This document shows, one piece after another, positions 1,254 to 56,916 of a DNA stretch of 56,916 nucleotides (position 1 is its first letter; each line of letters opens with the position of its first letter). The notes under the pieces are model-generated. The model saw only the letters and a list, made by a program, of their open reading frames with translations. It had not been told where the DNA came from and did not search any database. This stretch comes from a virus (taxonomy: Duplodnaviria > Caudoviricetes). The position numbers and the translations under genes are program-made. Location: positions 1 through 56,916 of the IMG/VR virus record IMGVR_UViG_3300037458_001688. The stretch is one strand, 5' to 3'.

Positions 1254-1504
1254 CGCACCACAGCCCGCTGCGACCCCGCAGCGGTGCACGCGCAACCACC
1301 GATCTGCTCGACGTGGTCGCGGACCAGAGCCAACGGGCTCTTCTCGACATCAGGCGTTGCGGATCGGCTCTCCGCTGACGCCAACCGCCGCTCGAGGTCG
1401 GCGATCAGTGCGGTCTTCTGCCTCAGGGCGCGTGTCGCAGCCTCGATCAGGCGGTGAAGCACATCCACGTCCCTCACGGAGCGCCACCACTCAATCCCTG
1501 CCAT
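1250..1504 (-). CDS. hypothetical coiled-coil protein
   Basis: Coupled ORF with GGAGG RBS. Confidence 0.5.
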   Translation of the reverse strand: MAGIEWWRSVRDVDVLHRLIEAATRALRQKTALIADLERRLASAESRSATPDVEKSPLALVRDHVEQIGGCACTAAGSQRAVVR

Positions 1505-2852
1505 ACCACCCTCCATCGTCTTCTGGCTCCACACTGGAATCCCCGAGCGCCGTGGTGACCTCACTGAACCGCGTCGTCACCCCGTCAAACCGCAGCCGCA
1601 CGGTCACCCCTGCGGGACCCTGCCTGTTCTTCGCCACCCGCAGCTCGGCGGCGTTACCCTTCTCTGGTCGGTGAAGGAAAAGCACCACGTCCGCGTCTTG
1701 CTCCAGCCGCCCGGACTCGCGCAGGTGGTAGAGCTGGGGCCCGTGCTCCGCGTGGTCCGCCGCCCGGTTGAGTTGGGCGAGTGCCAGGACCGGCACTCCG
1801 AGTTCCTTCGCGAGATTCTTGAGGCCACGAGAGACCTCAGAGACCTCTTCCTCCCGGCTCCGACCTCTGGCCGTTGGAGCCACCAGGCCAAGGTAATCGA
1901 CCACAACCAGGTCGACACGCCCGCCGATCGCAAGCGACCGTGACCTGGCTGCGATCTCCGCCATCGTGAGCGAGCCTGAATCGTCGATGAGCAACCCCTT
2001 CGGCAGCCACTCGATCGCCGACTCGAGCCTGTCCCGGGCGTAGTCCGAGAGCCTCCCGTTGACCATGAGATGGCACGAGACCCCAGTCCTCCCTGCGAGC
2101 ACCCTCTGCACGAGCTGCTGCGCGCTCATCTCGAGCGAGAAGAAGAGCACCGTGGAACCGTCAGTGGCGGCCTGATCGGCCACTTGGAGGGCAAGCGCCG
2201 TCTTCCCGACGCTCGTGGTGGCACCGAGCAGGTAGAGCCCGCCGGCACGCATCCCGCCCAACACCCCGTCGAGCCCGACGATGCCGCTCGCCACACCGAC
2301 CGACGCCGCTCCCGACGCCGCGATCGTGGTCGCGACCTCCATGACGTCCCGCGCAACCTCCACCACCGCCTGCGGGCCGCCGCGCCCCGTCGTGGCCTGC
2401 CGCACGAGGTCTCCGACGGAGGCGTACACCCTGCCCAACGCAGCGTCGAGATCGGCTCCAGCAACACCACTCTCGGCAACATCCTGGGCGTCCTTGGCGA
2501 GCTGCTCGAGCCTCCTCCTCAGGGATTCGCAGCGTACAAGCCGCGCGTAGTGGCCCGCACTGGTGACGTCAGGGACCTGGTCGGTGAGCCGGCTCAGGTA
2601 TGACACCCCACCCACGGTCGTGAGCTGCCCCCAGCTTTCGAGCCTCGCCCCCACCGTGATCTCGTCGAGGGGTTCGCTCTGGCGCAGGAGGTCCTCGACA
2701 GCTTCCAGGATCAGCTCGTGAGCGTGGCACCGACAGTCGGACGGCCTCATGACCCGCAGAGCGTCCGCCGCGGCCACTGGGTCGACCACCGCGGCACCGA
2801 TGACCGCCAGCTCCGCCACGCTTGGCGAGCCGGTCTCGCGCTTCCTAGCCAC
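1491..2852 (-). CDS. dnaB: replicative DNA helicase, DnaB family
   Basis: Walker A GATTSVGKT, FSLEMS, VVVDYL, LAQLNR, LRESGRLEQDADVV, VAKNRQGP. Confidence 0.95.
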   Translation of the reverse strand: MARKRETGSPSVAELAVIGAAVVDPVAAADALRVMRPSDCRCHAHELILEAVEDLLRQSEPLDEITVGARLESWGQLTTVGGVSYLSRLTDQVPDVTSAGHYARLVRCESLRRRLEQLAKDAQDVAESGVAGADLDAALGRVYASVGDLVRQATTGRGGPQAVVEVARDVMEVATTIAASGAASVGVASGIVGLDGVLGGMRAGGLYLLGATTSVGKTALALQVADQAATDGSTVLFFSLEMSAQQLVQRVLAGRTGVSCHLMVNGRLSDYARDRLESAIEWLPKGLLIDDSGSLTMAEIAARSRSLAIGGRVDLVVVDYLGLVAPTARGRSREEEVSEVSRGLKNLAKELGVPVLALAQLNRAADHAEHGPQLYHLRESGRLEQDADVVLFLHRPEKGNAAELRVAKNRQGPAGVTVRLRFDGVTTRFSEVTTALGDSSVEPEDDGGWYGRD

Positions 2853-4546: not shown

Positions 4547-5622
4547 CACCGTGACCTCCTGCTCGCGGCAAGCATGCCGGCGATCTCGTTGCGGGAGGCG
4601 CAGCCGTTCCTGAGCAACGCGGCGTAGTCCGACAGCGCCGCCTGCGCCGGGGAGAGCGTCGCCGACCAGCGCCCGGCCTCCCGGGTCTGGTCCACCCACA
4701 GCAACAGCAATGGGATGAACCCGACCCACAGCCGCATCTCCTGAATACACCCGATCACAACCGTGGCCACCCAGAGCGAGAGGTACAAGCCACCCAGCTC
4801 GGCGATCTCGCGGCGCTGCCGCTGGCACAGCGCCCACCCGACGAGCCAGGCGAACGCCACCGCCACCAGCGGCTCCGGAATCCTCCACTCGCAGAGCAGC
4901 TCCCACCCGCGGCTCAGGTTGTACGGCAGGCAGAAAGGGTAGCCCGGGACCTGCTCCCAACCCATCCCTGTCCCCACCTCACGCAGGGCCAGCCCTCGCG
5001 CCCACCACGCCCACCATGCCGCATACCCCGTCAGCGCCACGAAGAGGCCCGCAAGCTGCCATCGCCGACGAAACACATGCACCGCCACGAGCCAGAGACC
5101 CAGGATGAGCGCGATCTCCCGGTTGAAGACCGCGAGGAAGACCAACCCGATGAGCACACCCGGTGCTGCCTTCCGCGTCACCGCCAGCACGACACCTCCA
5201 AGGATGAGCAGGTCGATGAGGTCCCAGCTGAGAAACCAGCACCCACGGCACAGCGCCGCGAGCGCCAGCGCCGCCACGGCTGTCAAGGTGGCTGAGCGGC
5301 TGTTGACGCCACCGCAGGCCCACACGAGGCCCACGTAGAAGGCGCCGAGCAGGCCGACGACGAGCACCCCCCAGGCAATGGCGTGGGGCACGCCCGCAAG
5401 CATCGCGATGGCTTCGACCAGTAGGGGGCCCAGGAGCCGCGACTGATGCAGCACCGACACCGGCTCGAGCGCGACGATCTGCGCTTGATACCACGACGTC
5501 AACCCGAGCTGCGGCGCCAGCGCGTGGAGCGTCGCCGCGATCTGCGCCCCGGGGGCGAGGACCACCACCAGCACCGGCCACACGCGAGGCCAGGCGCCGC
5601 GGAGGCTGGCACGCACGCTCAT
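4546..5622 (-). CDS. multi-pass membrane protein, possibly GT-C/Gtr-like
   Basis: Many hydrophobic segments; WDLIDL, FNRE and QEMRLW loops. Confidence 0.6.
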   Translation of the reverse strand: MSVRASLRGAWPRVWPVLVVVLAPGAQIAATLHALAPQLGLTSWYQAQIVALEPVSVLHQSRLLGPLLVEAIAMLAGVPHAIAWGVLVVGLLGAFYVGLVWACGGVNSRSATLTAVAALALAALCRGCWFLSWDLIDLLILGGVVLAVTRKAAPGVLIGLVFLAVFNREIALILGLWLVAVHVFRRRWQLAGLFVALTGYAAWWAWWARGLALREVGTGMGWEQVPGYPFCLPYNLSRGWELLCEWRIPEPLVAVAFAWLVGWALCQRQRREIAELGGLYLSLWVATVVIGCIQEMRLWVGFIPLLLLWVDQTREAGRWSATLSPAQAALSDYAALLRNGCASRNEIAGMLAASRRSR

Positions 5623-5996
5623 GGCCGCACCGTCCGCTCCTCGATCGCCTCCTGGTACGCGTCCATGAGGGCGTCTCTCCCGTTGTGCGCCTGCAGCTTC
5701 GTGCCGTACTTTCGCTCCCCGGCCTCGACGCGGGCACGGATGTCCGCCAGGACCAGGGGCGCGATCTCCACGCCGCCGGGCTGCGGTGGGGGCTGCGGGG
5801 TGGCCGCCTCGATCCCCTGCGGCGATAGCGAGCGCGAGTAGTACGCCTCGAGCTCCCGCGCCAGCGCCAGCAGACAGCGGTCCTTCGCCATGCCGAGGGT
5901 CCCCTCCTCCGCGTCGTAGGGAAGGTGGTCGGTGCTGCGCACCACCAGCAACACGTACCTGAACCGATTGAGCGCGCTCTCCGCTGGGACTCCCAT
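5619..5996 (-). CDS. phage protein with a MazG/dNTP-pyrophosphatase-like motif, possibly truncated
   Basis: GERKYGTKLQAHNGRDALMDAYQEAI. Confidence 0.5.
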   Translation of the reverse strand: MGVPAESALNRFRYVLLVVRSTDHLPYDAEEGTLGMAKDRCLLALARELEAYYSRSLSPQGIEAATPQPPPQPGGVEIAPLVLADIRARVEAGERKYGTKLQAHNGRDALMDAYQEAIEERTVRP

Positions 5997-6238
5997 CAGC
6001 TCCTCCTCACGCCCACAGCGAGTCCGAGTGCCGCCTCCCACCACTCGAGGGCACCACGCACCCAGCTCTGGGGCACGCCGTAGTCCTCGGCCAGCGCCTC
6101 GACCGAGTCTCCCGCTCGGTGGCGGTTGGCCAGGATTGACACGCCGACGCCGGTGCCACGGATGTGAAAGGCCCCGAAGCAGACTCCAGGGTCCCTCGTC
6201 ACGCCCGGAAACGGCCCCGTGAAGGCAGGCTCGCTCAT
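5996..6238 (-). CDS. DUF433 domain protein
   Basis: TRDPGVCFGAFHIRGTGVGV...GDSVEALAEDYGV. Confidence 0.8.
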   Translation of the reverse strand: MSEPAFTGPFPGVTRDPGVCFGAFHIRGTGVGVSILANRHRAGDSVEALAEDYGVPQSWVRGALEWWEAALGLAVGVRRS

Positions 6239-6555
6239 CTCGCGTCGCTCCTCTCTGCCAGCGCGTCGCCCTGGCGCAGCCAGGCGGTGATGACGTACTC
6301 CCCGCCGACCGACACCTCGACCGGGATGCACCAGTCGTGGATCATCCGGTCGCGGGCGGGGCTCCAGCGGAACGGCTCCCCCGGCTTCACGTGGTGCCCG
6401 CAGATGCAGGGGCGGCGCGGGATCACCACCACGTCGCACTCCGGGGAGACCCACCAGTAGATGACCGCCAGCGCGCACGCTGCGAGGAGCAGGATGGCGG
6501 TGAGCATGAGGATCACTGGGAGCATGGGGGGCCTCCGGTCACGTCGACTGGTCAT
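6235..6555 (-). CDS. small membrane-anchored hypothetical protein
   Basis: N-terminal TM helix followed by CICGH and HDWC. Confidence 0.5.
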   Translation of the reverse strand: MTSRRDRRPPMLPVILMLTAILLLAACALAVIYWWVSPECDVVVIPRRPCICGHHVKPGEPFRWSPARDRMIHDWCIPVEVSVGGEYVITAWLRQGDALAERSDAR

Positions 6556-7675
6556 TCGGGGCCGCCACCGGGTCGCAGACCTTCCTCCACTCGCTCCAGA
6601 GGTCGCGCAGCAGCAGCTTGTCGAGGTACCGGTGCGCCCTCTTGGCGATGTGCCCGCACCCCATGTGGGCAGCCGTCAGCTTCTTGACGACCTCTGGCCT
6701 CGGGAGCCCCTTCGCCTCCCAGTTGTCGGCTGTGGACTTCACGGTCGTGGCGACCGTCAGCCCGCGGCGACCCGCCATTTCGATCTCGTACACCAGCCGC
6801 GCGTCGTAGACGTCCCTGTACGGCCCGTGGGATGCCTTGACGATGCCCTCGCCGAGCTTCCACGCGATGCACCGCCGCCCCGGCACGTACCCCATCGCCA
6901 ACACTTCCTCGAGCGTGCCAGGCATACGGCGCTGGATCTTCCCGTCGCGCATGCCGACGCCCATCCACGCCCAGAGCTTCGCCGGGCTGGCGAATCGCCC
7001 GAGGTCCCCAGCGGTGCCGATGACCTCCGCCAGGATCAGCGGACCGATCCCGCGCACGGACTTCGCCCACGGCCAGACCCGGAGCTTGCGAACCACCTTC
7101 TCCAGGTCGTGCTCCACCCCCTTTCGCAGGGGCTCGAGCGCGGCCCTAGCGGCGAGAAGTCCGGAGCAGGCCGGAAGCGCGAGGAGCATCTGCGGGTGGT
7201 CTCCACCCTTGACGATCGCGCTGTACAGCTTCGCCGCGTCCGTCTTCTCGCCGGCGCAGCACCGCCTGCAGATGGCCTTGACCTGGAGCGTGAGCTTCAC
7301 TTCGGCCCGGTGGAAGTCCTCGCGCAGGCGGTAAAGCTCCCGGATGTGGGCGACAACCGTGTATTGGGTGGCATAGTTTCCGTGGTCGCCCACACCCGGG
7401 GAAGGGGAGTCCGGAACCGAGGCAGAGCTGGAATGGGTGGCAGTTCTATCATGGCCTCGGCCCCGGGAGCTTGAGCGACGGAGCCCAACAGATCCACGGT
7501 GGGGGGCATGACCAGGTTGGTCGGGCTCCGTCTCGTTCGAATCGCCGTGGTCGGCACTGACCAATTGGGTGGCAACCGGAGACTGGCCTTCCACGGCAAA
7601 AGGTGAGCCGCTGTCGTCAGCCGACGCATGGGCAACATTGCACGGGTGGACTTCAGCGGCTGCAATCTTCGACAT
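6539..7675 (-). CDS. tasA: TIGR-associated Nop-domain protein without a nuclease domain (TasA type; IS110/Nop fold)
   Basis: ATG at 7675 with GGAGGT RBS; coiled coil, then SVRGIGPLILAEVIG...DLGRFASPAKLWAWMG and PYRDVYDAR...HIAKRAHRYLDKLLLRDLW; no RuvC DEDD or HNH domain; overlaps the guide array. Confidence 0.85.
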   Translation of the reverse strand: MSKIAAAEVHPCNVAHASADDSGSPFAVEGQSPVATQLVSADHGDSNETEPDQPGHAPHRGSVGLRRSSSRGRGHDRTATHSSSASVPDSPSPGVGDHGNYATQYTVVAHIRELYRLREDFHRAEVKLTLQVKAICRRCCAGEKTDAAKLYSAIVKGGDHPQMLLALPACSGLLAARAALEPLRKGVEHDLEKVVRKLRVWPWAKSVRGIGPLILAEVIGTAGDLGRFASPAKLWAWMGVGMRDGKIQRRMPGTLEEVLAMGYVPGRRCIAWKLGEGIVKASHGPYRDVYDARLVYEIEMAGRRGLTVATTVKSTADNWEAKGLPRPEVVKKLTAAHMGCGHIAKRAHRYLDKLLLRDLWSEWRKVCDPVAAPNDQST

Positions 7676-7818
7676 AGCTACCTCCTGAAAGGGGTCGGGC
7701 GGGGTGAAGGCAGGGGTTCCGTGGGTGACAGAAGTAAACTGGCCTCCACCCCGCCGAATGGACAGCGAGACCGGACAAAGTGCCGTCGGGTGACATGGAG
7801 CAGATGGGCCGGTCTCGC
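7345..7818 (-). ncRNA. TIGR array: 7 stem-loop dual-spacer guide units
   Basis: Units at 7765-7818, 7698-7755, 7606-7661, 7544-7597, 7477-7532, 7411-7466 and 7345-7394; each is stem-CCA-9 nt-loop (TGCCACCCA, TGTCACCCA and variants)-9 nt-TG-complementary stem. Confidence 0.9.
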
Positions 7819-7826
7819 CATTTCTC

Positions 7827-8390
7827 TCACGCATCGCGCGTGACCTGGGCGTACAGATCGGCCACTGCGTCGTTGCTGAGCACCTCGGCCACGGTCACCT
7901 GGTCGCCGGGGAGCCGCGCCGCGATGGCCTCCTCGAACCGCGCCCTCTCGAGCGTTGTCCCCGCTGCCGTCCGCCGAGCGTTGGCGCTCTCCAGCAGGTC
8001 GTTGCGCCGGCACTCGCCGAGGACGCGCCCCCGAACCAGCCAACCCCTCAGCCAGTCGGTCGACATCGCCTGAAGACCTTCGGTGTTGCTGTTCCCCTTG
8101 GCGGACCTACGCTTGTTGCTCTCGACCGCCACCGGGTCGGGCTGTGGCTTCGGCAGAACCTGCGGGAACACCCGCCCTCCGGCCAGGTGGCTGCGCAGCT
8201 GCGACCCCGCCGCGTCGACCGCGGTGGCGATCCCGAGCTCCGCCGCCTCATGCAGCAGGTCGTCGTCAGCCAGGACCATCTCCCGGAGCTTCGCCCTCGC
8301 CGTGTTGCGGTCCTTGACCTCGTTGAGAATGTCCATGGCGAGCCGCCCGACTCCGACACAGTCCTGATGCTCTTCCGCTCGCGCGCTCAT
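7827..8390 (-). CDS. hypothetical protein directly upstream of the TIGR array
   Basis: ATG with GGAGGT RBS; stop codon ends 8 nt before unit 1. Confidence 0.7.
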   Translation of the reverse strand: MSARAEEHQDCVGVGRLAMDILNEVKDRNTARAKLREMVLADDDLLHEAAELGIATAVDAAGSQLRSHLAGGRVFPQVLPKPQPDPVAVESNKRRSAKGNSNTEGLQAMSTDWLRGWLVRGRVLGECRRNDLLESANARRTAAGTTLERARFEEAIAARLPGDQVTVAEVLSNDAVADLYAQVTRDA

Positions 8391-8392
8391 CG

Positions 8393-8593
8393 TTACCTCC
8401 CGTGTTTTCCCCGACACCCCAGCATCTCGCCGAGGTGGTGGACGATCCGTTGCTGGTTCGTGCTGTTGAGGATGTCGAGCGCCACCGCGCCCGGCCGCTC
8501 GGGGTCGCGGATCACGAGCAGGTGGGACCCGCAATCCGGGCACGTCGCCTCGCGGTAGCCGCAGCACCAGCGCCAGTGGTGGTTGCGCTTCAT
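8393..8593 (-). CDS. small zinc-ribbon protein
   Basis: CCG...CPDCG; ATGA coupling. Confidence 0.5.
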   Translation of the reverse strand: MKRNHHWRWCCGYREATCPDCGSHLLVIRDPERPGAVALDILNSTNQQRIVHHLGEMLGCRGKHGR

Positions 8594-9168
8594 GGGCCTT
8601 CCTCCCCAGCGGTCCGGCGCAGGCTGCTGCGCCAGTCGATGACGGCGTTCAGGAGCCGGTCCGCGAGGGGGAGCAGGGTGGTCGCCTCGCGCTTCGACAC
8701 CTCGCCGTCGGCCGCCGCCAGCACCCACGACGTGAGGGCGCCGCCGAATGCCTCGACGGTCTTCGCCGTCGTCTCCACCACCGTCTCCTGGTCCTCCTCC
8801 CCGTCCGCCAGCTCCAGCGGCCGGAATCCAGCAGCCTCCAAGGCCAGCGAGAGGCCCGCCCGCGCCACCTCTGGCCGTCTGAGCACGAGCAGCCAGAAGT
8901 CCTCGAGGGGAAGCCCATGCTCCCCGTCGAGCTGCTTGTTGCGGAAGCGGGGTGTCCGGTCGGCCGCGACCTGCGGCACCAGGCGGAAGAAGTCCTCGCC
9001 CCACCGACCCAAGAGCGACGCCGTGACGTCCACTGCTCCGACGTCGTCATGCTCGGCCAGCTCCCGCCGGCGCTCGGCGATGTTCTGGCGGACCATGCAG
9101 GCCCGTCCCGTGACCACCACATGGGCAACCCGCGGCTCGTGCTCGACCACCCTCAGCTGCTGGCGCAT
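8590..9168 (-). CDS. CII-like phage regulatory protein
   Basis: Position in the early operon; C-terminal AADGEVSKRE helix pair. Confidence 0.4.
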   Translation of the reverse strand: MRQQLRVVEHEPRVAHVVVTGRACMVRQNIAERRRELAEHDDVGAVDVTASLLGRWGEDFFRLVPQVAADRTPRFRNKQLDGEHGLPLEDFWLLVLRRPEVARAGLSLALEAAGFRPLELADGEEDQETVVETTAKTVEAFGGALTSWVLAAADGEVSKREATTLLPLADRLLNAVIDWRSSLRRTAGEEGP

Positions 9169-9410
9169 GTGTCCCTCCTCCTCAGAGCCAGGGCCGCGAG
9201 GTGCGAGTTGGCCTCGTCAACCGACCCGCTGTCGCGCTGCAGCGTCCGCAGGAGGCTGCTGTCGACGCGGTCGAGAGCTCGCTGCAGCTCTGGCCGCGCG
9301 GCCGCCACGTCAGGCCACACCCGGCACAGCACATCCGCGCTGATGACCGCACGTTGCAGCAGCGTGTGGACCTCGATCGCCTCGCCTACGGTGAGCTGGA
9401 CCTCGATCAC
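9153..9410 (-). CDS. hypothetical protein
   Basis: Coupled ORF. Confidence 0.5.
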   Translation of the reverse strand: MIEVQLTVGEAIEVHTLLQRAVISADVLCRVWPDVAAARPELQRALDRVDSSLLRTLQRDSGSVDEANSHLAALALRRRDTCASS

Positions 9411-9667
9411 TTGGCCTCCCCGTTGTCACCCTCCGCCTTCCCGTCGCCGAGGGTCTGCTTCACGTCCCGCCGCAGGTTCTTCAGCTGGTAACGGATGGCG
9501 GCGACGTCCTTGGCCAGCGCCTCGAGCTGCGGGTCGTGCCCGAGGGCGGTCTCGACCAGGTTGCCGACCCGCCGCAGCTGCCGCCACATGCCGAAGGCGC
9601 ACGCCACGAGAACCCCGAGACCCACCAGCTCGACCGCGTCCATCGCTCCGTCCCTCCTCCAGCTCAT
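9407..9667 (-). CDS. small TM plus coiled-coil protein
   Basis: Hydrophobic helix; coupled ORF. Confidence 0.5.
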   Translation of the reverse strand: MSWRRDGAMDAVELVGLGVLVACAFGMWRQLRRVGNLVETALGHDPQLEALAKDVAAIRYQLKNLRRDVKQTLGDGKAEGDNGEAK

Positions 9668-9933
9668 CGCGATGCCTTCCTCTCCCGGTGCTCGGCCATC
9701 GTGGCCGTCTGCGCCTCCAGGTGGCGCTCGAGCTCGCGGCGGGGCACCACGATCCGGCGTCCCACCCGCACCACCCTGATCAACCCCGCGTCGATGCGCC
9801 GGCGCAGCTCCGTCTCCCCGATGGAGGACGCCGCGGCCGCCTCGCGCACCGTCAGCCCAAGCTTCCCGGCGCCGCTGGAGGCGACCATCCCCTCGAGCTT
9901 CCGAAGAAGCCGCTGCTCTTCCTTGGCCGTCAC
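9664..9933 (-). CDS. excisionase-like HTH protein
   Basis: LTVREAAAASSIGETELRRRIDAGLIRVVRVGRRIVVP. Confidence 0.8.
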   Translation of the reverse strand: MTAKEEQRLLRKLEGMVASSGAGKLGLTVREAAAASSIGETELRRRIDAGLIRVVRVGRRIVVPRRELERHLEAQTATMAEHRERKASR

Positions 9934-9934
9934 G

Positions 9935-10354
9935 TCAGCCCCCGGAGTTCTCGACCAGGTAGAGGTGGTGCTCGCTCGCCGCCAGCACGGCAGGCGTGAC
10001 CTCGAGGTCGCCGTGCCGGCCCCCCATCCTCGCCAGGTGGAGGAGGCTCTGCGCCTCCCTCGGGTGGGCGACGAGGTCGGACCTCAGGCCGAGCCCGGCC
10101 AGGTAGGAGCGGATCTCGGGCTCGGTCATCGACGCGAAGTCCGGCTCGGGCTCGGTCGCGAGCCGCACCTTCAGCCAGCGCAGCGCCCGCTGGACCCGCA
10201 GCGTCCCGAGCTCGACCTCGATCCGGTCGGCGCATGTCTCGTGCGCTACCACCTTGGCACCCTTGCGGAGGCGCTTTGTGCGGTACCTGTCGAGGAGCCG
10301 GATCTGCCGGCCGCAGTAGCAGCAGGTGTGCGAGCGGAAGCTCAGCCAGCGCAT
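9935..10354 (-). CDS. hypothetical protein
   Basis: CCYCG motif; RBS present. Confidence 0.5.
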   Translation of the reverse strand: MRWLSFRSHTCCYCGRQIRLLDRYRTKRLRKGAKVVAHETCADRIEVELGTLRVQRALRWLKVRLATEPEPDFASMTEPEIRSYLAGLGLRSDLVAHPREAQSLLHLARMGGRHGDLEVTPAVLAASEHHLYLVENSGG

Positions 10355-11328
10355 GACCCCTCCTCGTCGCCGTCACCCCACGGCGGCTGGTCGTAGTCGT
10401 CTCCGTCCCCATCCTCCGAAGGGCTCCCCAGCCCGGCCTGGGGAGCGGGAGGAGGCGTGTGCGAACCCGGCGAAGGGAGGTCTGCGGACGCCACCGGGGC
10501 GGGAGAAGGTCCGGGGTCCCCCGACCGGGTGGGACGAAGCGAGGAGACAGGGGCAACGTCGCCGCACGGGGCTGACCCGGTCTCGACGAGGTTGCCCACG
10601 CGTGTGGTGTCGATGGGAGCCCCGCACGCGTCGACGGCGTGTGGGAGCGCGGTGTTGGACAGGACGTAGGAGTGGACGCGGGGCCCGCCCGGGGAGGAGG
10701 CATGGACCCCGGGTGTCGTCGGCGTGGGCCCCGCGTCCGACTCGCGTGACGGTCGCCAGCTGGTGCTGCTGTTGTCCGGCGCGTCCATGTTCTCGGCGGT
10801 GAGGAGCTGGTCGTGGTAAGCCAGCTGCTCGAGCGTCGCTGCCGCCACCAGGGCCGCCGACGTGGCGACGCGCCGCGCCACCTCCATCGTCAGCGCGGAC
10901 TCGACGGGGTACCCGTCAGAGCCCATGTGGTGCGCCCGGCACAGCAGGCGCCGGCCGCTCTCGCCTGCCAGCAGCCCCGTGATCGCCGCGGCGGCGAAAA
11001 GGTCGCGCCGCTGGTGGTCGTCGGGGGTCAGCGCAGGCTCATAGGCGGTGGTGTACTCGTAGCCCTCCATGATCTTTTGGAAGGCGACGCTCAGCGGGGC
11101 TTCACGCTCAACCTGGCCCGTCCCGTTGCACGCGGTGCACACCAGCTCCTCGGGGCCGTGCTCGCGCTCGAGCGAGTCGGCCAGCACGAGCAGCGCGGCC
11201 AGGTCCTCGCCTCTCGCGTGGCGGTAGCGATGCTGCCACCCCTCCCACGCCGGGTTGTTGACGACCGCAGACCCGCCGCAGATGTCGCAGGGGCCCCTGT
11301 AGCACACGAAGTAGAGGTCTGCGTCCAT
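10342..11328 (-). CDS. hypothetical protein (Zn-finger N-terminus, RDLFAAAAITGLLA motif)
   Basis: CDICGG and CTACNGTG motifs; common phage RDxFAxxAxxGLLA motif. Confidence 0.55.
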   Translation of the reverse strand: MDADLYFVCYRGPCDICGGSAVVNNPAWEGWQHRYRHARGEDLAALLVLADSLEREHGPEELVCTACNGTGQVEREAPLSVAFQKIMEGYEYTTAYEPALTPDDHQRRDLFAAAAITGLLAGESGRRLLCRAHHMGSDGYPVESALTMEVARRVATSAALVAAATLEQLAYHDQLLTAENMDAPDNSSTSWRPSRESDAGPTPTTPGVHASSPGGPRVHSYVLSNTALPHAVDACGAPIDTTRVGNLVETGSAPCGDVAPVSSLRPTRSGDPGPSPAPVASADLPSPGSHTPPPAPQAGLGSPSEDGDGDDYDQPPWGDGDEEGSCAG

Positions 11329-11565
11329 CAGCTCTTCCCCCGGTTGAAGAGGTTCACCAGGCCCGTGAGGGCCCGCTTCAGGACGCCGACGCCAGACGCC
11401 GGCGCCGGAGCCGCGGCCCGGCCCAGCGCGTGGCGCATCCTCTCCCGCTGCGCCGCAGCCTTGGCCTCGCGGTCAGCCTCTGCGCGGTTGCGCATCGTCC
11501 GCCCGACCCACTCGACGCCGGCACGGCGGTAAACCGCCCTACGGAGAGTCCTGAGCCCGCCCACC

Positions 11566-11892
11566 TCACACCGCCTTCCGCTGGCACCTGGGGCCGCCGG
11601 CGATCTCAAACGGGAGGCAGACGACGAGCGCGCTGTGGTCCGCAGGCACGACCCACTTCAGGTTGCCGCGGTAGGCCTGCGCCTTCTCGAGGCCCGCGGC
11701 GCGGCCCACGATGCGGACGTAGGGGAGGCCGCCCTTCTTCGCGCAGGCCAGCACCCGGCAGCTGATGCCCCGCGGCTCGCCGGGGCTCAGCCGCAGCATC
11801 CCGGGCCCCTGCTTGCGCAGGCTCATGGTCACGCCTGGATGGCGCCGAGACCCGATCGCCTGCCCGTACTCGATCAACGGCTCCCAGCTCAT
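11566..11892 (-). CDS. hypothetical protein
   Basis: ATG with GGAGG RBS. Confidence 0.5.
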   Translation of the reverse strand: MSWEPLIEYGQAIGSRRHPGVTMSLRKQGPGMLRLSPGEPRGISCRVLACAKKGGLPYVRIVGRAAGLEKAQAYRGNLKWVVPADHSALVVCLPFEIAGGPRCQRKAV

Positions 11893-12250
11893 GACGGACC
11901 TCCTCGCAGGTGGGGGCGGGTCATTTCGTTGACGGCCCACCGTCGAAGCTCGAGCAACAGCGCGTCCTCCTGGCACGGAGGCACCCCCGGGAACGCCGGC
12001 GGCTCACCACCGCCGCGCCGGTCGCCGGCGTCCCCTCCCGTGTTCGCGGTCGTCGAGGCTGCGTCGAAGCGATCGCTCTGGGGCTGCTTCCGCCCGCCAC
12101 GGTTGTCTGGTCCGTGGTCGGGCCCCGTCACGCCGCAGCCGACGCGATCGACCGGTGAGCTGGGTCGACATGCTTGGAAGACGCCGCCCGAGGCACGCAG
12201 GGCAGCGCCGGGGATCACCGCGCCGTGCCACGCGGAGATGGAGTCGTGAG

Positions 12251-12517
12251 TCACCCGCGCTCCACCGGGGCCGATGCGCCCTCAACCGGCACTGGCGCTG
12301 GAACGATCGGGCATGCAAGTTCCTCGCATGGCCACAGCTCGTCCACCGACGTTTCGAGCGCAGCAGCGATGCGGCGGGCCAGCGGTAGCGTCGGGGCGTG
12401 CTCCCCGTCCTCCAACCGCTGCACGTGCGAAATGCTCATCTCGGCCAGCTCGGCGAGCTTCTGCTGCGTCAACCCCCGGGCTAGCCTGTGGTCGCGAATC
12501 AGTGATCGTTGTTCCAT
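12251..12517 (-). CDS. cro: Cro-like XRE HTH regulator
   Basis: RLARGLTQQKLAELAEMSISHVQRLEDGEHAPTL; divergent from cI. Confidence 0.85.
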   Translation of the reverse strand: MEQRSLIRDHRLARGLTQQKLAELAEMSISHVQRLEDGEHAPTLPLARRIAAALETSVDELWPCEELACPIVPAPVPVEGASAPVERG

Positions 12518-12524
12518 GAACGCG

Positions 12525-12553
12525 AATTTAACACCCCGCAAATGCGCTGTCAA
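12525..12553 (-). promoter_or_regulatory. sigma70-type early promoter for cro (leaderless)
   Basis: TTGACA-17 nt-TAAATT, with ATG 7 nt downstream. Confidence 0.75.
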
Positions 12554-12578
12554 GGGTGGGGCGACCACTTTCTCGCGG

Positions 12579-12607
12579 TTGACCTCGAATTCGCGTCAAG
12601 CGATCTT
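12579..12607 (+). promoter_or_regulatory. cI promoter (leaderless)
   Basis: TTGACC-17 nt-GATCTT, with GTG 7 nt downstream; inverted ACGCGAATT/AATTCGCGT candidate operators lie in both promoters. Confidence 0.5.
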
Positions 12608-12614
12608 CGGAGAG

Positions 12615-13271
12615 GTGACCATCGGCGAGGCCATTCGGGGGTGGAGAGAGGTCCGCGGGCTCAGCATCGAGGCCCTTGCGGACCGGGCTGGAATCGCGAA
12701 GACGTCCCTGCAGCGGTACGAGACGAACGCAAACTCCCCGACCTACCACCAGCTCGAGAAGATCGCCGGCAAGCTGGACCTGACGGTGGCGGAGCTCGTC
12801 TCCGGCCCGTCACCCGTGGTGCGGGAGCCGTCCTCTCCCTACCGCGCCGACATCGACCACCCGCGCCCAGTCCACACGGTGGCTGTACCCCTCTACGACG
12901 GCGTGCCGGCCGGAGGGTGGTCACCATCGGCGCCGGAGCGGGACGGCGAGCACGAGGTTCTCCACCACCTGGTGGGCGATCGCGACGGCGGACGGTACGT
13001 CGTCGTACGCGTCCGGGGCGACAGCATGTACCCGCGCCTCCTCGACGGGGACCTGGTCCTCGTCGACACCCACCAGCGCCGGCCGAAGAGCCAGCAGGTG
13101 GTGGTCGCCGTCTACCGGGGCGCCACGACGCTGAAGCGGTACATGGTCATCAACCGCAGGCCGGTGCTGATGCCATTCAACCCCGACTACCAGGCCCTCG
13201 AGATTGATGACCCCGAGGACTTGCGCATCATCGGGGTGGTAACCGATCTTGTACACAGGGCTGGCGTCTGA
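12615..13271 (+). CDS. cI: CI repressor, HTH plus S24 autopeptidase
   Basis: XRE HTH; VPAG cleavage site, VRGDSMYP serine motif and TLKR lysine motif. Confidence 0.92.
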   Translation: MTIGEAIRGWREVRGLSIEALADRAGIAKTSLQRYETNANSPTYHQLEKIAGKLDLTVAELVSGPSPVVREPSSPYRADIDHPRPVHTVAVPLYDGVPAGGWSPSAPERDGEHEVLHHLVGDRDGGRYVVVRVRGDSMYPRLLDGDLVLVDTHQRRPKSQQVVVAVYRGATTLKRYMVINRRPVLMPFNPDYQALEIDDPEDLRIIGVVTDLVHRAGV

Positions 13272-21903: not shown

Positions 21904-22077
21904 CGACCACCCGCCGGATGACCGCGGCCGGGAACGGCCTCCCGAGCATCGGCGAAGAGGTCATCATCGAGGGCAAGGTGCTCCTGCGAGCGGGCGCAGC
22001 GGGAGAGGCAGAGAGGAGAGATGACGACGGCAAATCGGCCCTTGTCTGAAGGTCTCGTCGGCTCCACACTTGGAGCC

Positions 22078-23370
22078 ATGGCCAAGAAGCGAGCGCCGGG
22101 CGAAGGGTCGATCCACCAGCGGAGGGACGGCCGGTGGGAGGCCTCGCGCACCGTCGGCCGCACCAAGGGCGGCAACCCCCGCCGGGTCCGCGCCTACGGC
22201 CGAACCAAGGGCGAGGCGATCGCCAAGCTGGACAAGGCCCTCACCGAGCTCGGCGGCGTGGTGGGAGCCGGCATTGCAGTGGACCCCGGCACCCTCACCG
22301 TGGCCGGCCTGCTCGAGCGGTGGCTCCGGATGAAGGCCGGTGTCGGCGGGCTGAAGGAGACCACCATCACCAGCTACCGGTGGTACCTCAACCACTACGT
22401 CGTGCCGGCGATCGGCGCCGTCCCCCTGCGCCGCCTGCGGTCGACCCACGTCCAGGAGCTGCTCTCGAACCTCGCCGCCGGCATCCGGCCGGAGCCCCCC
22501 GACCAGGTCGATGGGGAGGAGTCACCGGCGAAGGAGACGGCCCCGCTCTCCCCCCGGGTCATCCGGTACGTCTGGACCCTCCTCAACGGCGCGTGCCGTC
22601 ACGCGGTCCGGCTCGAGCTGCTGCGCTCGAACCCGTGCGACCAGGTCAGCCCGCCCCGAGGTGGGCGCACCAAGGTCCCGCAGTCGTGGACCCCGGACGA
22701 GGTGGAGCGTCTCCTCGCGGCAGCCGCGGCCACGTCGCCCGCCCTGCGCCCGCTCTACTACCTGGCCGTCACCACCGGCTTGCGCCGCGGCGAGCTGCTC
22801 GCCCTGCGGTGGGAGGACCTCGACCTGGTCGAGGGCCTGGTGACGGTGCGCAGCTCCCGGGACGCCGCCGGCGTCACTACCACCCCGAAGACGGCCGCGG
22901 GCGTGCGGCAGGTCCCGATCTCCACCGATGCGGTGACCGTGCTCGAGGACCACCTCCAGGCGCAGCACGAGCGGCGCGAGCTCGCCATCGAGGCGGGGCT
23001 CTGGCAGGAGACCGGGTACGTGTTCACCACCTCCACCGGCCGCCCGGTCGCCGCCCGCAACCTCCTCCACAATCTCGAGCGCCTCTGCCGCCGGGCTGCG
23101 ATCCGCCGTCTCCCCTTCCACGCCCTACGTCACACCGCGGCCACCCTGGCCCTGCGCAGCGGCGTCCCCATCCGCGACCTGGCGGACCGCCTCGGCCACC
23201 GCCACGCCGCCTTCACCCTGAACGTCTACACCCACGTCCTGCAGGAGTCCGCCCGCGCCGCGGCCCTCACGCTCGAGGAGCTGCTGCAGGGCAAGAAAGC
23301 GGAGCCGGCCGAGCTCAAGGCCGAGCATCAGGATGGACAGGCGGCTCCCACAGAAGGGCAGGTCAACTGA
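22078..23370 (+). CDS. int: tyrosine integrase
   Basis: GEGSIHQRRDGRW arm-binding domain; TGLRRGEL, TPKT, FHALRHT, RLGH, and catalytic Tyr in NVYTH. Confidence 0.95.
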   Translation: MAKKRAPGEGSIHQRRDGRWEASRTVGRTKGGNPRRVRAYGRTKGEAIAKLDKALTELGGVVGAGIAVDPGTLTVAGLLERWLRMKAGVGGLKETTITSYRWYLNHYVVPAIGAVPLRRLRSTHVQELLSNLAAGIRPEPPDQVDGEESPAKETAPLSPRVIRYVWTLLNGACRHAVRLELLRSNPCDQVSPPRGGRTKVPQSWTPDEVERLLAAAAATSPALRPLYYLAVTTGLRRGELLALRWEDLDLVEGLVTVRSSRDAAGVTTTPKTAAGVRQVPISTDAVTVLEDHLQAQHERRELAIEAGLWQETGYVFTTSTGRPVAARNLLHNLERLCRRAAIRRLPFHALRHTAATLALRSGVPIRDLADRLGHRHAAFTLNVYTHVLQESARAAALTLEELLQGKKAEPAELKAEHQDGQAAPTEGQVN

Positions 23371-48556: not shown

Positions 48557-49936
48557 CTACTCGCGGGCGTCCAGGGTGATGAAGGGGGAGATGGCGTTCG
48601 AGCCCTGCGCCGGGGTGATGGACGAGGAGAGCAGCGGCAGGCCGTTCACGCGGGTGGTGAACCGGATCGCCGACTCGTCGTACACGAACCGGACGTGGAT
48701 GGAGCTCGCGACCTTGACCCCGGCCTTGCGGACGTGGGCGTACCACCCGAGGTCCGCCAGGACGATGTCACCCTTGGAGCCGAGAGCCTTGGAGTGCTCG
48801 TTGACGAGCACCGGCATGTTGAAGAGCCGCGCCGGGGGAGCGTCCTGGTAGCCGGCGGCGGGCAGGTACACGGGCTGGCCGGCAACGCCGACGAGCACGC
48901 CCATGTCGATCATCTCGGACTCGACGTCCTGGTGGACGAGCCAGATGCCGCGCTTCCGGCTGCGGGGGGGCATCCGGGCGAGCATCTTACGGACGTTCTG
49001 CGACCAGATGGTCGCGGCGTCCTGGCCGGTCTCCTTCGCGATGCTCACGAGCGCCGCGGAGTTCAGGATGCCGAGGGCCATGCCGGCGCCGGTGCCGGCG
49101 AAGATGTCCTCGTCGATCTGGAACGCGATCTCCTCGGCGAAGCCCTGGGCGCCGACCGAGGCGATGTAGGCGGTGTCCTCGAGCTGCTCGTCGGACACGT
49201 ACCACAGCCCCATGATCTTCTCGAGCTTCGTGGTGACCTTGCGGAACTTCGGCTTCTTCGCCGTCACCTCGGCGCCCTCGGCGGCGTGGTAGACCTGGAG
49301 ACCGCCGTAGCGGGAGCCGAGCGCCCTGGAGGTTTCGTCGATGACGTCGATCTCGACGGAGTTGGAGCCGTCGCTGACCTCGATCGGCATGCAGCGGCTG
49401 GCCAGCTCCGCGGAGTCGAACGCCATCTTGTCGATGAGACCGACGGCGGTCGGGGCGAGGAGGAAGCCACCCTCGGACCCGATGCCCTCGTTGGTGCCGG
49501 CGGCGGCGAGGGGACGCAGGCGGGGGTCGACGCGGCCGTCGACGCGCGGCTCCGCCTTGTGGACCGCCTGGATGAACTCGGCGAACCCGAGGCGGGCGTC
49601 GCCGTGCCCCCACGGGCGTTCCTCGGCGTGGTCCTTGCCGAGCTCGATGCCGCTGCCCGAGGTCTTCGCCGGGGTGGCATGGGCGAGCTGACGGCGCTCG
49701 GCCTCCTCGGCGATCTCGATGGCCGCCTTGATCTCGTCCTCCCGGCCGCGGAGGCTGGCGAACTGCTCGCGCAGCGCCTTGGTCTGGGACGCCTCCTCGT
49801 CGGTCAGGGGGCGGCCCTTGCCGTCGTTCGTGGCCTCGGCGGCGGAGGTGATGCCGGTGATCCTCTGCGCGACCGCGGCCATCTCCGACGCCAGCTCGCC
49901 GAGCTTGCGCCGCATGTTGATGATCTGGTCCTTCAT
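48557..49936 (-). CDS. major capsid protein, HK97 fold
   Basis: Coiled-coil delta domain, EGGFLLAP, AEGAE and FVYDESAIRF. Confidence 0.93.
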   Translation of the reverse strand: MKDQIINMRRKLGELASEMAAVAQRITGITSAAEATNDGKGRPLTDEEASQTKALREQFASLRGREDEIKAAIEIAEEAERRQLAHATPAKTSGSGIELGKDHAEERPWGHGDARLGFAEFIQAVHKAEPRVDGRVDPRLRPLAAAGTNEGIGSEGGFLLAPTAVGLIDKMAFDSAELASRCMPIEVSDGSNSVEIDVIDETSRALGSRYGGLQVYHAAEGAEVTAKKPKFRKVTTKLEKIMGLWYVSDEQLEDTAYIASVGAQGFAEEIAFQIDEDIFAGTGAGMALGILNSAALVSIAKETGQDAATIWSQNVRKMLARMPPRSRKRGIWLVHQDVESEMIDMGVLVGVAGQPVYLPAAGYQDAPPARLFNMPVLVNEHSKALGSKGDIVLADLGWYAHVRKAGVKVASSIHVRFVYDESAIRFTTRVNGLPLLSSSITPAQGSNAISPFITLDARE

Positions 49937-56703: not shown

Positions 56704-56916
56704 GGCTCCACCTCCATTCCGAGACGCTTGGCGTCGATCTCGAGAGCAAGCCTGTCAGTCTCCGCGCTGCGATAGCTGGGGTGATTGCTCCAGGCGTCGA
56801 ACAGCGCCTCCTCCAGCTCCGCGACGCGGGCGCGGAGGCGGTCGATCTCCTCCTCACGCTCGTTCCAGCGCTCCATCGACGCGATGTCCTCCTCGCCCAT
56901 CGGCTCAATCACGCTG
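56700..56916 (-). CDS. 3' part of an LRARVAELE protein (5' end outside the window)
   Basis: Shares the 110-bp repeat with the gene at 279-716. Confidence 0.55.
   Translation of the reverse strand, partial: SVIEPMGEEDIASMERWNEREEEIDRLRARVAELEEALFDAWSNHPSYRSAETDRLALEIDAKRLGMEVEP
56807..56916. repeat. 110-bp exact repeat, copy 2
   Basis: Identical to 398-507. Confidence 0.95.

Follow-up and report, generated by a model that had tools for sequence, protein, structure and literature searches.

The window analysed here, the whole stretch of 56,916 nucleotides to which all positions refer, is the 56.9-kb record of a temperate phage from a wetland metagenome. The phage genome looks whole, with a repressor, an Xis-like gene, an integrase, and replication and structural modules all present. 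On its minus strand, the gene referred to here as tasA and an array of seven hairpin units (U1 to U7) lie inside a tightly packed block of same-strand genes, whose order runs from a CI/LexA-like repressor to DnaB; tasA itself stands between the immunity switch with the Xis-like gene and the replication genes. The array occupies the same strand as tasA, from 0 to 160 nt upstream of its start codon and on within codons 1-94, so that U1 and U2 are situated upstream of the start codon and U3-U7 inside the 5' coding region. The features are as follows, the bit scores being those of a covariance model built from the window's seven units:

6539-7675, minus strand: tasA open reading frame, 378 aa from an ATG with a strong Shine-Dalgarno sequence
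7681-7686, minus strand: Shine-Dalgarno AGGAGG, 5 nt ahead of the ATG at 7675-7673, as read from the sequence
6551-7375, minus strand: TasA core, approximately residues 101-375, with a coiled-coil hairpin (helices 101-139 and 163-195) and a Nop C-terminal domain; pLDDT > 90, GC3 0.90
7764-7819, minus strand: U1, comprising stem, box C CCA (7807-7805), spacer A, loop UG-N4-CCG, spacer B, box D UG (7777-7776) and stem; 50.5 bits
7699-7754, minus strand: U2, the last unit ahead of the tasA ribosome-binding site; 55.3 bits
7606-7661, minus strand: U3, within the tasA 5' coding region, with a 2x2 internal stem mismatch; 49.7 bits
7543-7598, minus strand: U4, intragenic, with a 2x2 internal stem mismatch; 51.5 bits
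7477-7532, minus strand: U5, intragenic; 51.9 bits
7411-7466, minus strand: U6, intragenic; 51.8 bits
7342-7397, minus strand: U7, intragenic, with a 15-bp stem that reaches 7339-7400; 54.6 bits

The seven units span 7342-7819 and share one layout, in which box C (CCA) and box D (UG) stand around two 9-nt spacers and a 9-nt loop reading UG-N4-CCR. The corresponding pattern, CCA-N9-TGYYNCCCR-N9-TG, gives seven minus-strand matches (7807-7776, 7742-7711, 7649-7618, 7586-7555, 7520-7489, 7454-7423 and 7385-7354) against 0.03 expected, and none of 100 shuffles reached seven. The initial annotation, made from the sequence without database searches, had proposed seven minus-strand units of this geometry; its unit positions were right and its spacer and loop strings are exactly those found. 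Its array edge needs correction, as the U1 stem begins at approximately 7820-7821 and not at 7818, and it left unstated that U3-U7 lie inside the reading frame starting at 7675. The gene upstream has its stop codon at 7829-7827, and U1 starts 6-7 nt past it. No further unit was found in the window: the covariance model recovers only the seven at E <= 1, and a relaxed scan of the whole window (boxes CNN, spacers of 8-11, loops of 3-6) remained at chance level, its additional candidates at 53311, 5531 and 5067 being discarded on that ground (five shuffles gave 16 matches).

The closing stems, extended outward from the boxes, contain 11-15 pairs (G-U counted) and differ in sequence in each unit. 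When the seven 56-nt units are aligned, which needs no gaps, 94.9% of the cells pair, compared with 60.8% in shuffles (0 of 500 reach 94.9%), and pairing falls to 32-50% on sliding the partner column. Compensatory changes, with both sides altered, are present in 11 of the 13 stem pairs, and in its minimum-free-energy structure the 501-nt array RNA forms seven hairpins, each separate from the rest (z = -7.3). Both the architecture of the RNA and its covariation are thereby directly observed, and they bear out the earlier statement that the stems differ in sequence and nevertheless pair. The accompanying suspicion that repeat finders would overlook such an array was also well founded: Tandem Repeats Finder returned 0 rows even at a score of 30, and a general repeat search sees only a three-copy, 14-nt loop family and the seven stems as separate inverted repeats. 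A 110-bp repeat was also recorded. An Rfam scan of 6000-8600 at E <= 1 gave no family save a chance lncRNA match (E 0.44). A CUU motif, counted by eye, occurs in only four of eight linkers or flanks; in the Xu 2026 preprint, CUU at the stem base is described as a processing mark.

RNA-guided DNA-binding systems of the TIGR-Tas kind were first described in 2025, with DNA as target, and not RNA as in the box C/D snoRNP; stem-loop arrays with TasA were among those described (Faure 2025, Science, PMC12045711). The published definition of the stem-loop TIGR array comprises CCA/UG boxes, two 9-nt spacers and variable palindromic stems (Faure 2025; Xu 2026, bioRxiv 10.64898/2026.09.09.750476), and the premise of the initial annotation, that CCA and UG boxes around two 9-nt spacers define TIGR-Tas, matches it. 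The Xu 2026 preprint, whose catalogue holds 20,096 tas loci and 2,559 stem-loop arrays, further reports arrays within the tas 5' end in disordered regions (the units at this end being described in general terms), a 9-nt loop and TasA acting as a repressor. A cryo-EM structure of a stem-loop TasA dimer is also available (Guan 2026, bioRxiv 10.64898/2026.08.11.744272).

The protein belongs with these systems by sequence family and by fold. It scores 105.1 bits against NCBIfam NF052498 (TIGR_Tas_endo, "TIGR-Tas system"; cut-off 100) over profile positions 2-215 of 215, and its best sequence match in the PDB is TasR (9MTY, chain 9mty_A; E 6.8e-12). In the AF2 model, pLDDT exceeds 90 across residues 101-375, and the first 94 residues are disordered. 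The ten leading Foldseek matches are without exception TasR/TasH structures (E 8e-7 to 1.6e-4), ranks 11-15 are IS110-type bridge recombinases (IS621, ISCro4), and Nop5 follows those with weak matches (E 0.46-0.83). The Nop-domain identity proposed for 6539-7675 and the suggested comparison of its predicted structure with TasA, Nop5 and IS110 were thus well aimed. No DEDD/RuvC, HNH or PF01548 domain was detected, and Pfam at E <= 1 gives only PF02371, in agreement with the description of a TasA-type protein that lacks RuvC and HNH and is not a transposase; the IS110 transposase model NF033542 yields 33.1 bits against a cut-off of 140 (E 3.1e-8). The final helix stops near residue 367 (of 378), leaving a C-terminal tail of 11 residues without Tyr or His, which fits the stem-loop clade, since that clade is reported in the Xu 2026 preprint to lack the C-terminal Y/H processing loop. 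A homodimer prediction scored 0.52 against 0.11 for the best control, with one of the three runs giving 0.01, and the score may reflect no more than likeness to Tas dimers already solved. Of 30 proteins solved as one-chain pairs, 20 attain the mark used, as does one of 23 known as single chains. The runs share at least 84% of contacts, with a partner pLDDT of at least 80 and a predicted interface on the coiled-coil helices 116-135 and 168-183.

The linkage between units and tas genes is family-wide. This TasA is approximately 30-45% identical to members of a clade from high-GC phages and prophages (Alphaproteobacteria, Myxococcota and others). A strict motif-plus-stem search found 83 units, every one on the tas strand, in 30 of the 67 viral loci bearing a homologue; the shuffle yielded 0. 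A covariance model of the window's seven units had been put forward as a check; once built (R1, from those seven only), it recovered 260 further matches at E <= 1 in the 67 viral loci, with no exception on the tas strand (260/260). In 25 loci from bacterial genomes it gave 55 matches at E <= 0.01, spread over 22 of the loci, and 54 of these matches were on the tas strand. In the distant loci the units stand upstream, inside and downstream of the tas homologues. Among phages, the TasA core matched three records (Rhizobium, Mycobacterium and Gordonia phages), in each of which the annotation reads hypothetical protein.

Concerning its genomic setting, megablast of positions 1-25000 against GenBank phages gave no match, and the TerL protein is at best approximately 35% identical to those of Burkholderia, Marinobacter, Brucella and Ralstonia phages, so a host call is not possible. 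Only two of the neighbouring genes could be named by comparison with PHROGs, Pfam and NCBIfam; the gene at 9664-9933 is an Xis/HTH gene, that at 5619-6044 gives a weak match to a family of unknown function, and no ParB-like partner was found in the same searches. A scan of 5500-12300 found 0 sigma-70-like promoters, being uninformative for the phage's organism, and one terminator-like site, on the other strand; the transcription unit is therefore drawn from gene packing only. By gene order and packing, expression of tasA probably goes together with that of the early genes, and the proposal of a "lytic early operon" is plausible from the gene order.

Identical sequence is also present in environmental RNA libraries. 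Contigs from three metatranscriptome runs cover 7357-7582 and 7358-7567 (U4-U7) and 7670-7820 (U1-U2) at 100% identity, and others, equally identical, cover 6589-6739 and 6811-6961 of the tasA core; the three studies behind the runs share year and habitat and may belong to a single campaign. Such contigs cannot give strand, ends or level, and DNA may occur in RNA libraries. No RNA-library contig lies on 5600-6588 or 7821-9200, where lack of cover proves nothing. Two of the RNA contigs, from two studies, end at 7357 and 7358, where a DNA run continues; this is a weak hint at most, and the point lies inside spacer B of U7 and not at a unit boundary. A joint from 6100 to 8750 in a DNA run was set aside, its shorter side of 21 letters being too short to count.

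Several known systems share parts of this arrangement. The closest by description are PlTasA, from a Peromyscus leucopus gut contig (Faure 2025; Guan 2026), and MbTasA (Xu 2026), both nuclease-free Nop-domain proteins and phage-borne as here; processing and binding were tested there and would apply here by analogy. Bifidobacterium longum BlTasA (Xu 2026) likewise has units upstream of tas and inside the coding sequence with the frame kept open; its intragenic segment is reported at the wedge loop, whereas the five units found here form a disordered N-terminal tail, the 5' end arrangement of that preprint. Dual-repeat TIGR-TasR and TIGR-TasH (TaTasR, PDB 9MTY; SpTasH, 9W04; and others) have in common with this locus the coiled-coil and Nop fold, the CCA/UG boxes and the 9-nt tandem spacers, but they possess RuvC or HNH, edge and loop repeats that are conserved, tigRNAs of 36 nt and a Y/H processing loop at the C-terminus; the present locus lacks a nuclease, variable stems take the place of edge repeats, and the 11-residue tail contains neither Y nor H. 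The bridge-RNA recombinases IS110, IS621 and ISCro4 share the C-terminal RNA-binding domain PF02371, but in the present case the DEDD catalytic domain and the two-loop bridge RNA are both absent, and the score stays below the family cut-off. Lastly, the archaeal and eukaryotic box C/D snoRNP proteins Nop5 and Nop56/58 likewise combine a Nop fold with a guide RNA that has two guide segments and box C/D-like anchors; in contrast, neither a fibrillarin-binding domain nor a K-turn/L7Ae motif is present here, and the fold match is weak (3icx, E 0.46).

On this evidence, the locus is very probably a stem-loop TIGR-TasA system of a temperate phage. That the gene is a degenerate IS110-family transposase or its remnant, with hairpins that are a bridge-RNA-like element or leftovers, the whole being a mobile element and not a guide array, could be argued from PF02371 as the only Pfam domain, from the weak NF033542 match (E 3.1e-8) and from IS621 and ISCro4 coming next after the Tas structures in the fold ranking. 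Nonetheless, the protein has no DEDD/RuvC domain and reaches only 33 of the 140 bits demanded by NF033542, whereas the Tas model clears its own cut-off; the RNA consists of seven tandem units of one geometry instead of a single two-loop bridge RNA, the covariance model finds only these units in the window, and the gene sits within a phage operon with neither a spare copy nor element ends, all of which makes a transposon origin extremely improbable. The periodicity might also be a protein feature, namely a repetitive disordered N-terminal domain, or reflect ordinary hairpins (REP-like, attenuators or RNase sites) without guide function, given that five units lie in an open frame at spacings that are multiples of three and that their loops translate to similar tripeptides (A-T-Q, A-T-H, A-P-H, V-A-H). 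Against this, U1 and U2 have the same geometry upstream of the Shine-Dalgarno sequence and ATG, 65 nt apart; the stems covary at the nucleotide level, G-U pairs included; GC3 is flat in the array stretch; and the CCA/UG boxes with their 9-9-9 geometry recur beside tas homologues in many distant loci. We consider this explanation very improbable.

Two further alternatives accept the system and concern its gene start and its targets. The collection's gene call for tasA begins at a GTG (7393-7391, contained in the U7 stem) and predicts 284 aa, which would place all seven units in an untranslated 5' leader. It agrees with most homologues being 246-300 aa long and with the character of the array-encoded codons 1-94 (7394-7675), which are predicted to be disordered, show GC of 0.68/0.61/0.61 by codon position (the GC3 of 0.61 across 7391-7675 contrasting with 0.90 in the core) and carry a second open frame; owing to this flat GC, the second frame and the GTG call, translation of the N-terminal tail is not certain. 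However, a perfect AGGAGG stands 5 nt before the ATG at 7675, and no purine-rich site precedes the GTG. U3-U7 are spaced by 63, 66, 66 and 69 nt, all multiples of three, against 65 nt between U1 and U2; across the family, 17 of 22 adjacent intragenic unit pairs are spaced by a multiple of three (p = 3e-5), and box C falls in the three codon phases at 42:21:3 in intragenic units versus 15:12:15 outside the frame. Intragenic units that keep the frame are also reported in the Xu 2026 preprint, and the GTG start appears rather unlikely. As for targets, natural ones are described as hard to determine for TIGR-Tas, with most loci on short metagenomic contigs (Faure 2025; Xu 2026). In the phage's own 56.9 kb, a search for A+rc(B) or rc(A)+B with up to 3 mismatches and a gap of 0-2 nt revealed no real site for the seven units, only a 3-mismatch site at chance level and a place where the array partly overlaps itself; the system probably does not target its own phage genome. 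A search with the U1 site in the viral contig collection gave two gapped matches, a chance-level result, on contigs with a GC of 45-47%, and the 94 loci analysed (578 kb), at up to 2 mismatches, returned the same two and one 2-mismatch U5 match, with approximately 0.5 such matches expected by chance; an 18-mer is expected to match by chance in large collections, as Xu 2026 also notes. A self-directed role, in which the system regulates the phage's own life cycle or aids the integrase by bending DNA, in place of acting on host or rival elements, would suit a gene flanked on one side by the immunity switch and Xis-like gene and on the other by the replication genes, and the two ideas have been raised previously (life-cycle regulation in Xu 2026, integrase aid in Faure 2025). 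The lack of a site with up to 3 mismatches for any of the seven units in the 56.9-kb record, in either arrangement, argues against it, and we judge it unlikely. The phage context narrows the hypotheses: expression with the early genes is probable, and the phage's own genome is probably not the target.

For the stem-loop TIGR-TasA system, a working model can be outlined by analogy with the published homologues, on which processing, binding of tigRNA by a dimer, DNA binding and repression would all depend. A single minus-strand transcript, probably read through from upstream early genes, would carry the seven hairpin units, each presenting its two 9-nt spacers between box C and box D. Individual hairpin tigRNAs would be cut out of the transcript by a putative enzyme, and each would associate with a coiled-coil dimer of TasA, the Nop-domain protein that lacks a nuclease. 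At an adjacent 9+9 bp site, spacer A would then pair with one strand of the DNA and spacer B with its partner strand, such guided binding of both strands being suggested by the work on TasR, PlTasA and MbTasA. Sitting on DNA, the RNP may block transcription or other DNA transactions without cutting. TasA would accordingly qualify as the "programmable DNA binder" that the initial annotation had supposed, by analogy with tested homologues (Xu 2026; Guan 2026).

Five of the seven units would moreover double as tasA codons 1-94, the disordered tail, and if this tail is translated, excising those guides would destroy the same tasA mRNA. It is possible, and we suggest it tentatively, that the 5' 285 nt of tasA are both message and guide store: U3-U7 would be translated as the tail and also excised as tigRNAs, every guide so released would cost one tasA mRNA, providing a built-in control of the protein-to-guide ratio, and the early-expressed system would silence host or rival-phage DNA, a direction proposed because none of the seven 18-bp sites occurs in the phage's own genome.

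The locus adds no new principle, as intragenic units and TasA as an RNA-guided repressor have already been published (Faure 2025; Xu 2026; Guan 2026). Among TIGR-Tas systems, which are compact, bind DNA under RNA guidance and need no PAM, this locus has its value as a clean case in a seemingly whole temperate-phage genome, with identical sequence in environmental RNA libraries. It also illustrates that arrays overlooked by repeat finders can be spotted by a reader or by a simple rule of motif plus stem. If the double use of the tasA 5' end as message and guide store is true, the family-wide frame and codon-phase bias would be the footprint of that double duty.

A pattern scan of the 56,916-base window for CCA-N9-TGYYNCCCR-N9-TG returned seven matches, all on the minus strand, where 0.03 are expected; no eighth match was found anywhere in the window, and none of 100 shuffles of it reached seven. 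The matches, taken as the hairpin units U1 to U7 of a tigRNA array, are the following:

7807-7776, minus strand, U1 motif
7742-7711, minus strand, U2 motif
7649-7618, minus strand, U3 motif
7586-7555, minus strand, U4 motif
7520-7489, minus strand, U5 motif
7454-7423, minus strand, U6 motif
7385-7354, minus strand, U7 motif

The 9-nt strings of spacer A, loop and spacer B listed for all seven units in the initial annotation were correct on re-scan, and its claim that the stems differ and still pair also holds: when the units are extended outward past the boxes, each is closed by a stem of 11 to 15 pairs, different in sequence in every unit, with G-U pairs in several and a 2x2 internal mismatch in U3 and U4. 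No gaps are needed to align the seven units of 56 nt, and the named structure pairs 94.9% of the cells of this alignment vs 60.8% in shuffles (0 of 500 equal it); sliding the 3' partner by 1-3 columns lowers pairing to 32-50%, and 11 of the 13 stem pairs carry two-sided changes. The 501-nt array RNA is predicted to fold into seven separate hairpins (-230 kcal/mol, z = -7.3). Since the loop reads UG-N4-CCR, it divides into box D', a 4-nt linker and box C'; within its closing stem, each unit thus runs from box C through spacer A to this loop and on through spacer B to box D. Tandem Repeats Finder reported nothing on the array, even at score 30, and a repeat search gave only a three-copy 14-nt loop family, besides listing the stems as inverted repeats unrelated to one another; the expectation that such tools overlook the array was therefore right.

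Box C' and spacer B of U2 (7709-7724) are 81% alike over 16 nt to box C and spacer A of U7 (7370-7385), a likeness that could be accidental or could reflect the origin of units by duplication. The CUU trinucleotide reported at stem bases (Xu 2026, 10.64898/2026.09.09.750476) was read by eye in four of eight linkers or flanks across 7339-7830 (U2-U3, U3-U4, U6-U7 and after U7), the other four being without it.

The open reading frame at 6539-7675 (minus strand; tasA) encodes 378 aa, its ATG lying 5 nt downstream of a perfect AGGAGG. The only Pfam domain found is the IS110-family C-terminal PF02371; the NCBIfam TIGR-Tas model NF052498 scores 105.1 bits vs a cut-off of 100 over profile positions 2-215 of 215, and the closest PDB sequence is the TasR of 9MTY (E 6.8e-12). 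In an AlphaFold2 model based on 44 homologues, residues 101-375 have pLDDT >90 and form a long helical hairpin with a helical domain after it, and residues 1-94 are disordered. In Foldseek against the PDB, ranks 1-10 are TIGR TasR or TasH chains only, with ISCro4 and IS621, which are bridge-RNA recombinases, ranking next and Nop5 after them as a weak match. Neither Pfam nor the model shows a RuvC or HNH domain in the ORF, the protein therefore being of TasA type, as had been proposed (a nuclease-less Nop-domain protein). Two other identities were rejected: Nop5, for which no fibrillarin-binding domain is seen and the fold match is weak, and IS110 transposase, whose NCBIfam model reaches 33 bits vs a cut-off of 140; with the lack of a RuvC domain, the latter agrees with the earlier statement that this is not a transposase. 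NF052498 is named “RNA-guided endonuclease”, yet its 215-position profile spans the Nop part only, so a nuclease-free TasA would receive an endonuclease annotation.

The tail past the last helix has 11 residues without Tyr or His, in agreement with the trait reported for stem-loop clades (Xu 2026). Homodimer prediction scored 0.52 vs 0.11 for the best control, with one run in three at 0.01; of proteins solved as one-chain pairs, 20 of 30 attain this mark, and of those solved as single chains, 1 of 23. The runs share at least 84% of contacts at pLDDT of at least 80, and the predicted interface lies on the coiled-coil helices; solved Tas dimers exist, and the score may reflect likeness to them only. 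The C-terminal domain also carries a beta-hairpin insertion (residues ~305-340, window 6656-6761; strands 307-310 and 337-339), near-identical in only some homologues (e.g., P0015) and absent from most, which may be one of the clade-specific insertions linked to stem contacts (Xu 2026).

Homologues of TasA at 27-49% identity form 43 further protein clusters, found in 67 viral contigs and 25 bacterial genome records, including Bosea, Methylobacterium, Microvirga, Mesorhizobium, Magnetospirillum, and Myxococcota and Acidobacteriota MAGs; part of the genome records duplicate the DNA of viral loci (e.g., loci L082 and L030 are a single contig). When the strict motif was required together with at least 8 of 10 stem pairs, 30 of the 67 viral loci yielded 83 units in total, every one on the tas strand, and a shuffle yielded none. 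A covariance model, proposed earlier and now trained solely on the window's seven units, recovers just U1-U7 in the window and 260 more matches in the viral loci at E <= 1, all 260 on the tas strand. The best 150 model matches hold 143 units from 44 loci, with 93.4% of cells paired in an alignment fitted to the model. Among the 25 genome loci, 22 have model matches at E <= 0.01, 55 in total; of these, 54 lie on the tas strand, the exception being L074:1361-1416 (minus), on a Methylobacterium iners contig, ~1.6 kb upstream of tas.

U1 begins 6-7 nt past the stop codon of the upstream gene and U2 ends ~13 nt upstream of the Shine-Dalgarno sequence, while U3-U7 lie within tasA codons 1-94. Their start-to-start distances of 63, 66, 66 and 69 nt are all multiples of three; U1-U2 and U2-U3 are 65 and 93 nt apart. 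A shorter tasA starting at GTG 7393, inside U7, is the gene call of the protein collection, and fits the flat GC by codon position in codons 1-94 (0.68/0.61/0.61, vs a GC3 of 0.90 in the TasA core and 0.82-0.97 in other genes) and the second frame that is also open across this stretch. We consider it the less likely model, given the behavior of the family: after removal of 4 duplicate loci and then of 7 loci without peptide anchor, and with the window's own pairs included, 17 of the 22 neighboring unit pairs within the tas open frame lie a multiple of three nt apart (p = 3e-5), vs 2 of 6 outside it. Box C falls in the three codon phases at 42:21:3 for units within the frame and at 15:12:15 for those outside, in-frame units avoiding the phase where box C is a codon (3/66) and outside units having no such bias. 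We read this sequence bias as probable selection keeping the frame open through the units, for which reason the start at 7675 is preferred.

Stem-loop arrays have been reported to be processed to single hairpin units bound by TasA, spacers A and B each pairing with a different strand of an 18-bp site and gaps of 1-2 bp being tolerated (Faure 2025, PMC12045711). A stem-loop TasA has been described as dimerizing through its coiled coil on a single tigRNA (Guan 2026, 10.64898/2026.08.11.744272), and TasA and dead TasR as giving RNA-guided, reversible transcription repression (Xu 2026). The target site would read spacer A and then the reverse complement of spacer B, because the published 8-nt 3' overhangs and “C - 5 rule” together require that order; both arrangements were searched. 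With gaps of 0-2 nt allowed, no site with <=3 mismatches to any of the seven units was found in the phage's own genome, apart from a partial overlap of the array with itself and one 3-mismatch site at chance level, and in the viral contig collection the U1 site gave two gapped matches in low-GC contigs, which is chance level.

Near-identical DNA occurs in wetland metagenome runs, of which two may be the source of the window's DNA and a third, X3, contains 96% of sampled words. Three metatranscriptome runs, each from a different study but alike in year and habitat and thus possibly one campaign, contain contigs that match array and tasA stretches at 100% identity:

7357-7582 and 7358-7567, U4-U7
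7670-7820, U1-U2 and the start codon
6589-6739 and 6811-6961, tasA core

With strand, ends and level not readable from these contigs, and DNA contamination possible, they are at most a hint that array and tasA are transcribed.

The virus record has the same extent as the window, and from its gene content looks like a temperate phage genome:

52529-54292, large terminase
51106-52371, portal
48557-49936, major head protein
22021-23370, plus strand, integrase
12174-13271, plus strand, CI/LexA-like repressor
9664-9933, minus strand, HTH/Xis-like gene
6235-6525, minus strand, small-protein gene directly after tasA, with its own GGAGG and ATG 14 nt past the tasA stop
1491-2852, minus strand, DnaB-like helicase

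Searches of GenBank (1-25000 at nucleotide level; terminase as protein) found no close phage. An exact 110-bp direct repeat (398-507 = 56807-56916) links the record end with a position 397 nt in from the beginning. It could be a true repeat, or an overlap left by assembly if the genome is circular or terminally redundant, in which case the first 397 nt would be odd. The tasA gene lies in a dense minus-strand block running from the repressor side toward the helicase; this block and the close start of the next gene make “early operon” a fair reading of gene order. The proposed lytic early operon fits in its order; a scan of 5500-12300 gave no promoter and no terminator on this strand, and expression in the lysogen is also possible. 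The 6235-6525 product starts with a hydrophobic helix and ends in a tail rich in Cys and His, and matched no family in Pfam, PHROGs or NCBIfam.

The features that define stem-loop TIGR-TasA on sequence are present here: a Nop-domain Tas protein without nuclease, box-bounded 9-nt spacers, variable closing stems and an array on the tas strand. The traits that seemed most unusual, namely variable stems with fixed boxes, units inside the tas 5' end coding a disordered region, and a nuclease-free effector, are already described for published systems (Faure 2025; Guan 2026; Xu 2026). Mining of public metagenomes gave 20,096 tas loci and, from these, 2,559 stem-loop arrays (Xu 2026), and the window's contig may already be among them. 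What gives this locus its value is its complete phage context, the lack of self-targets, and statistics on frame and codon phase in favor of guide units that are translated.
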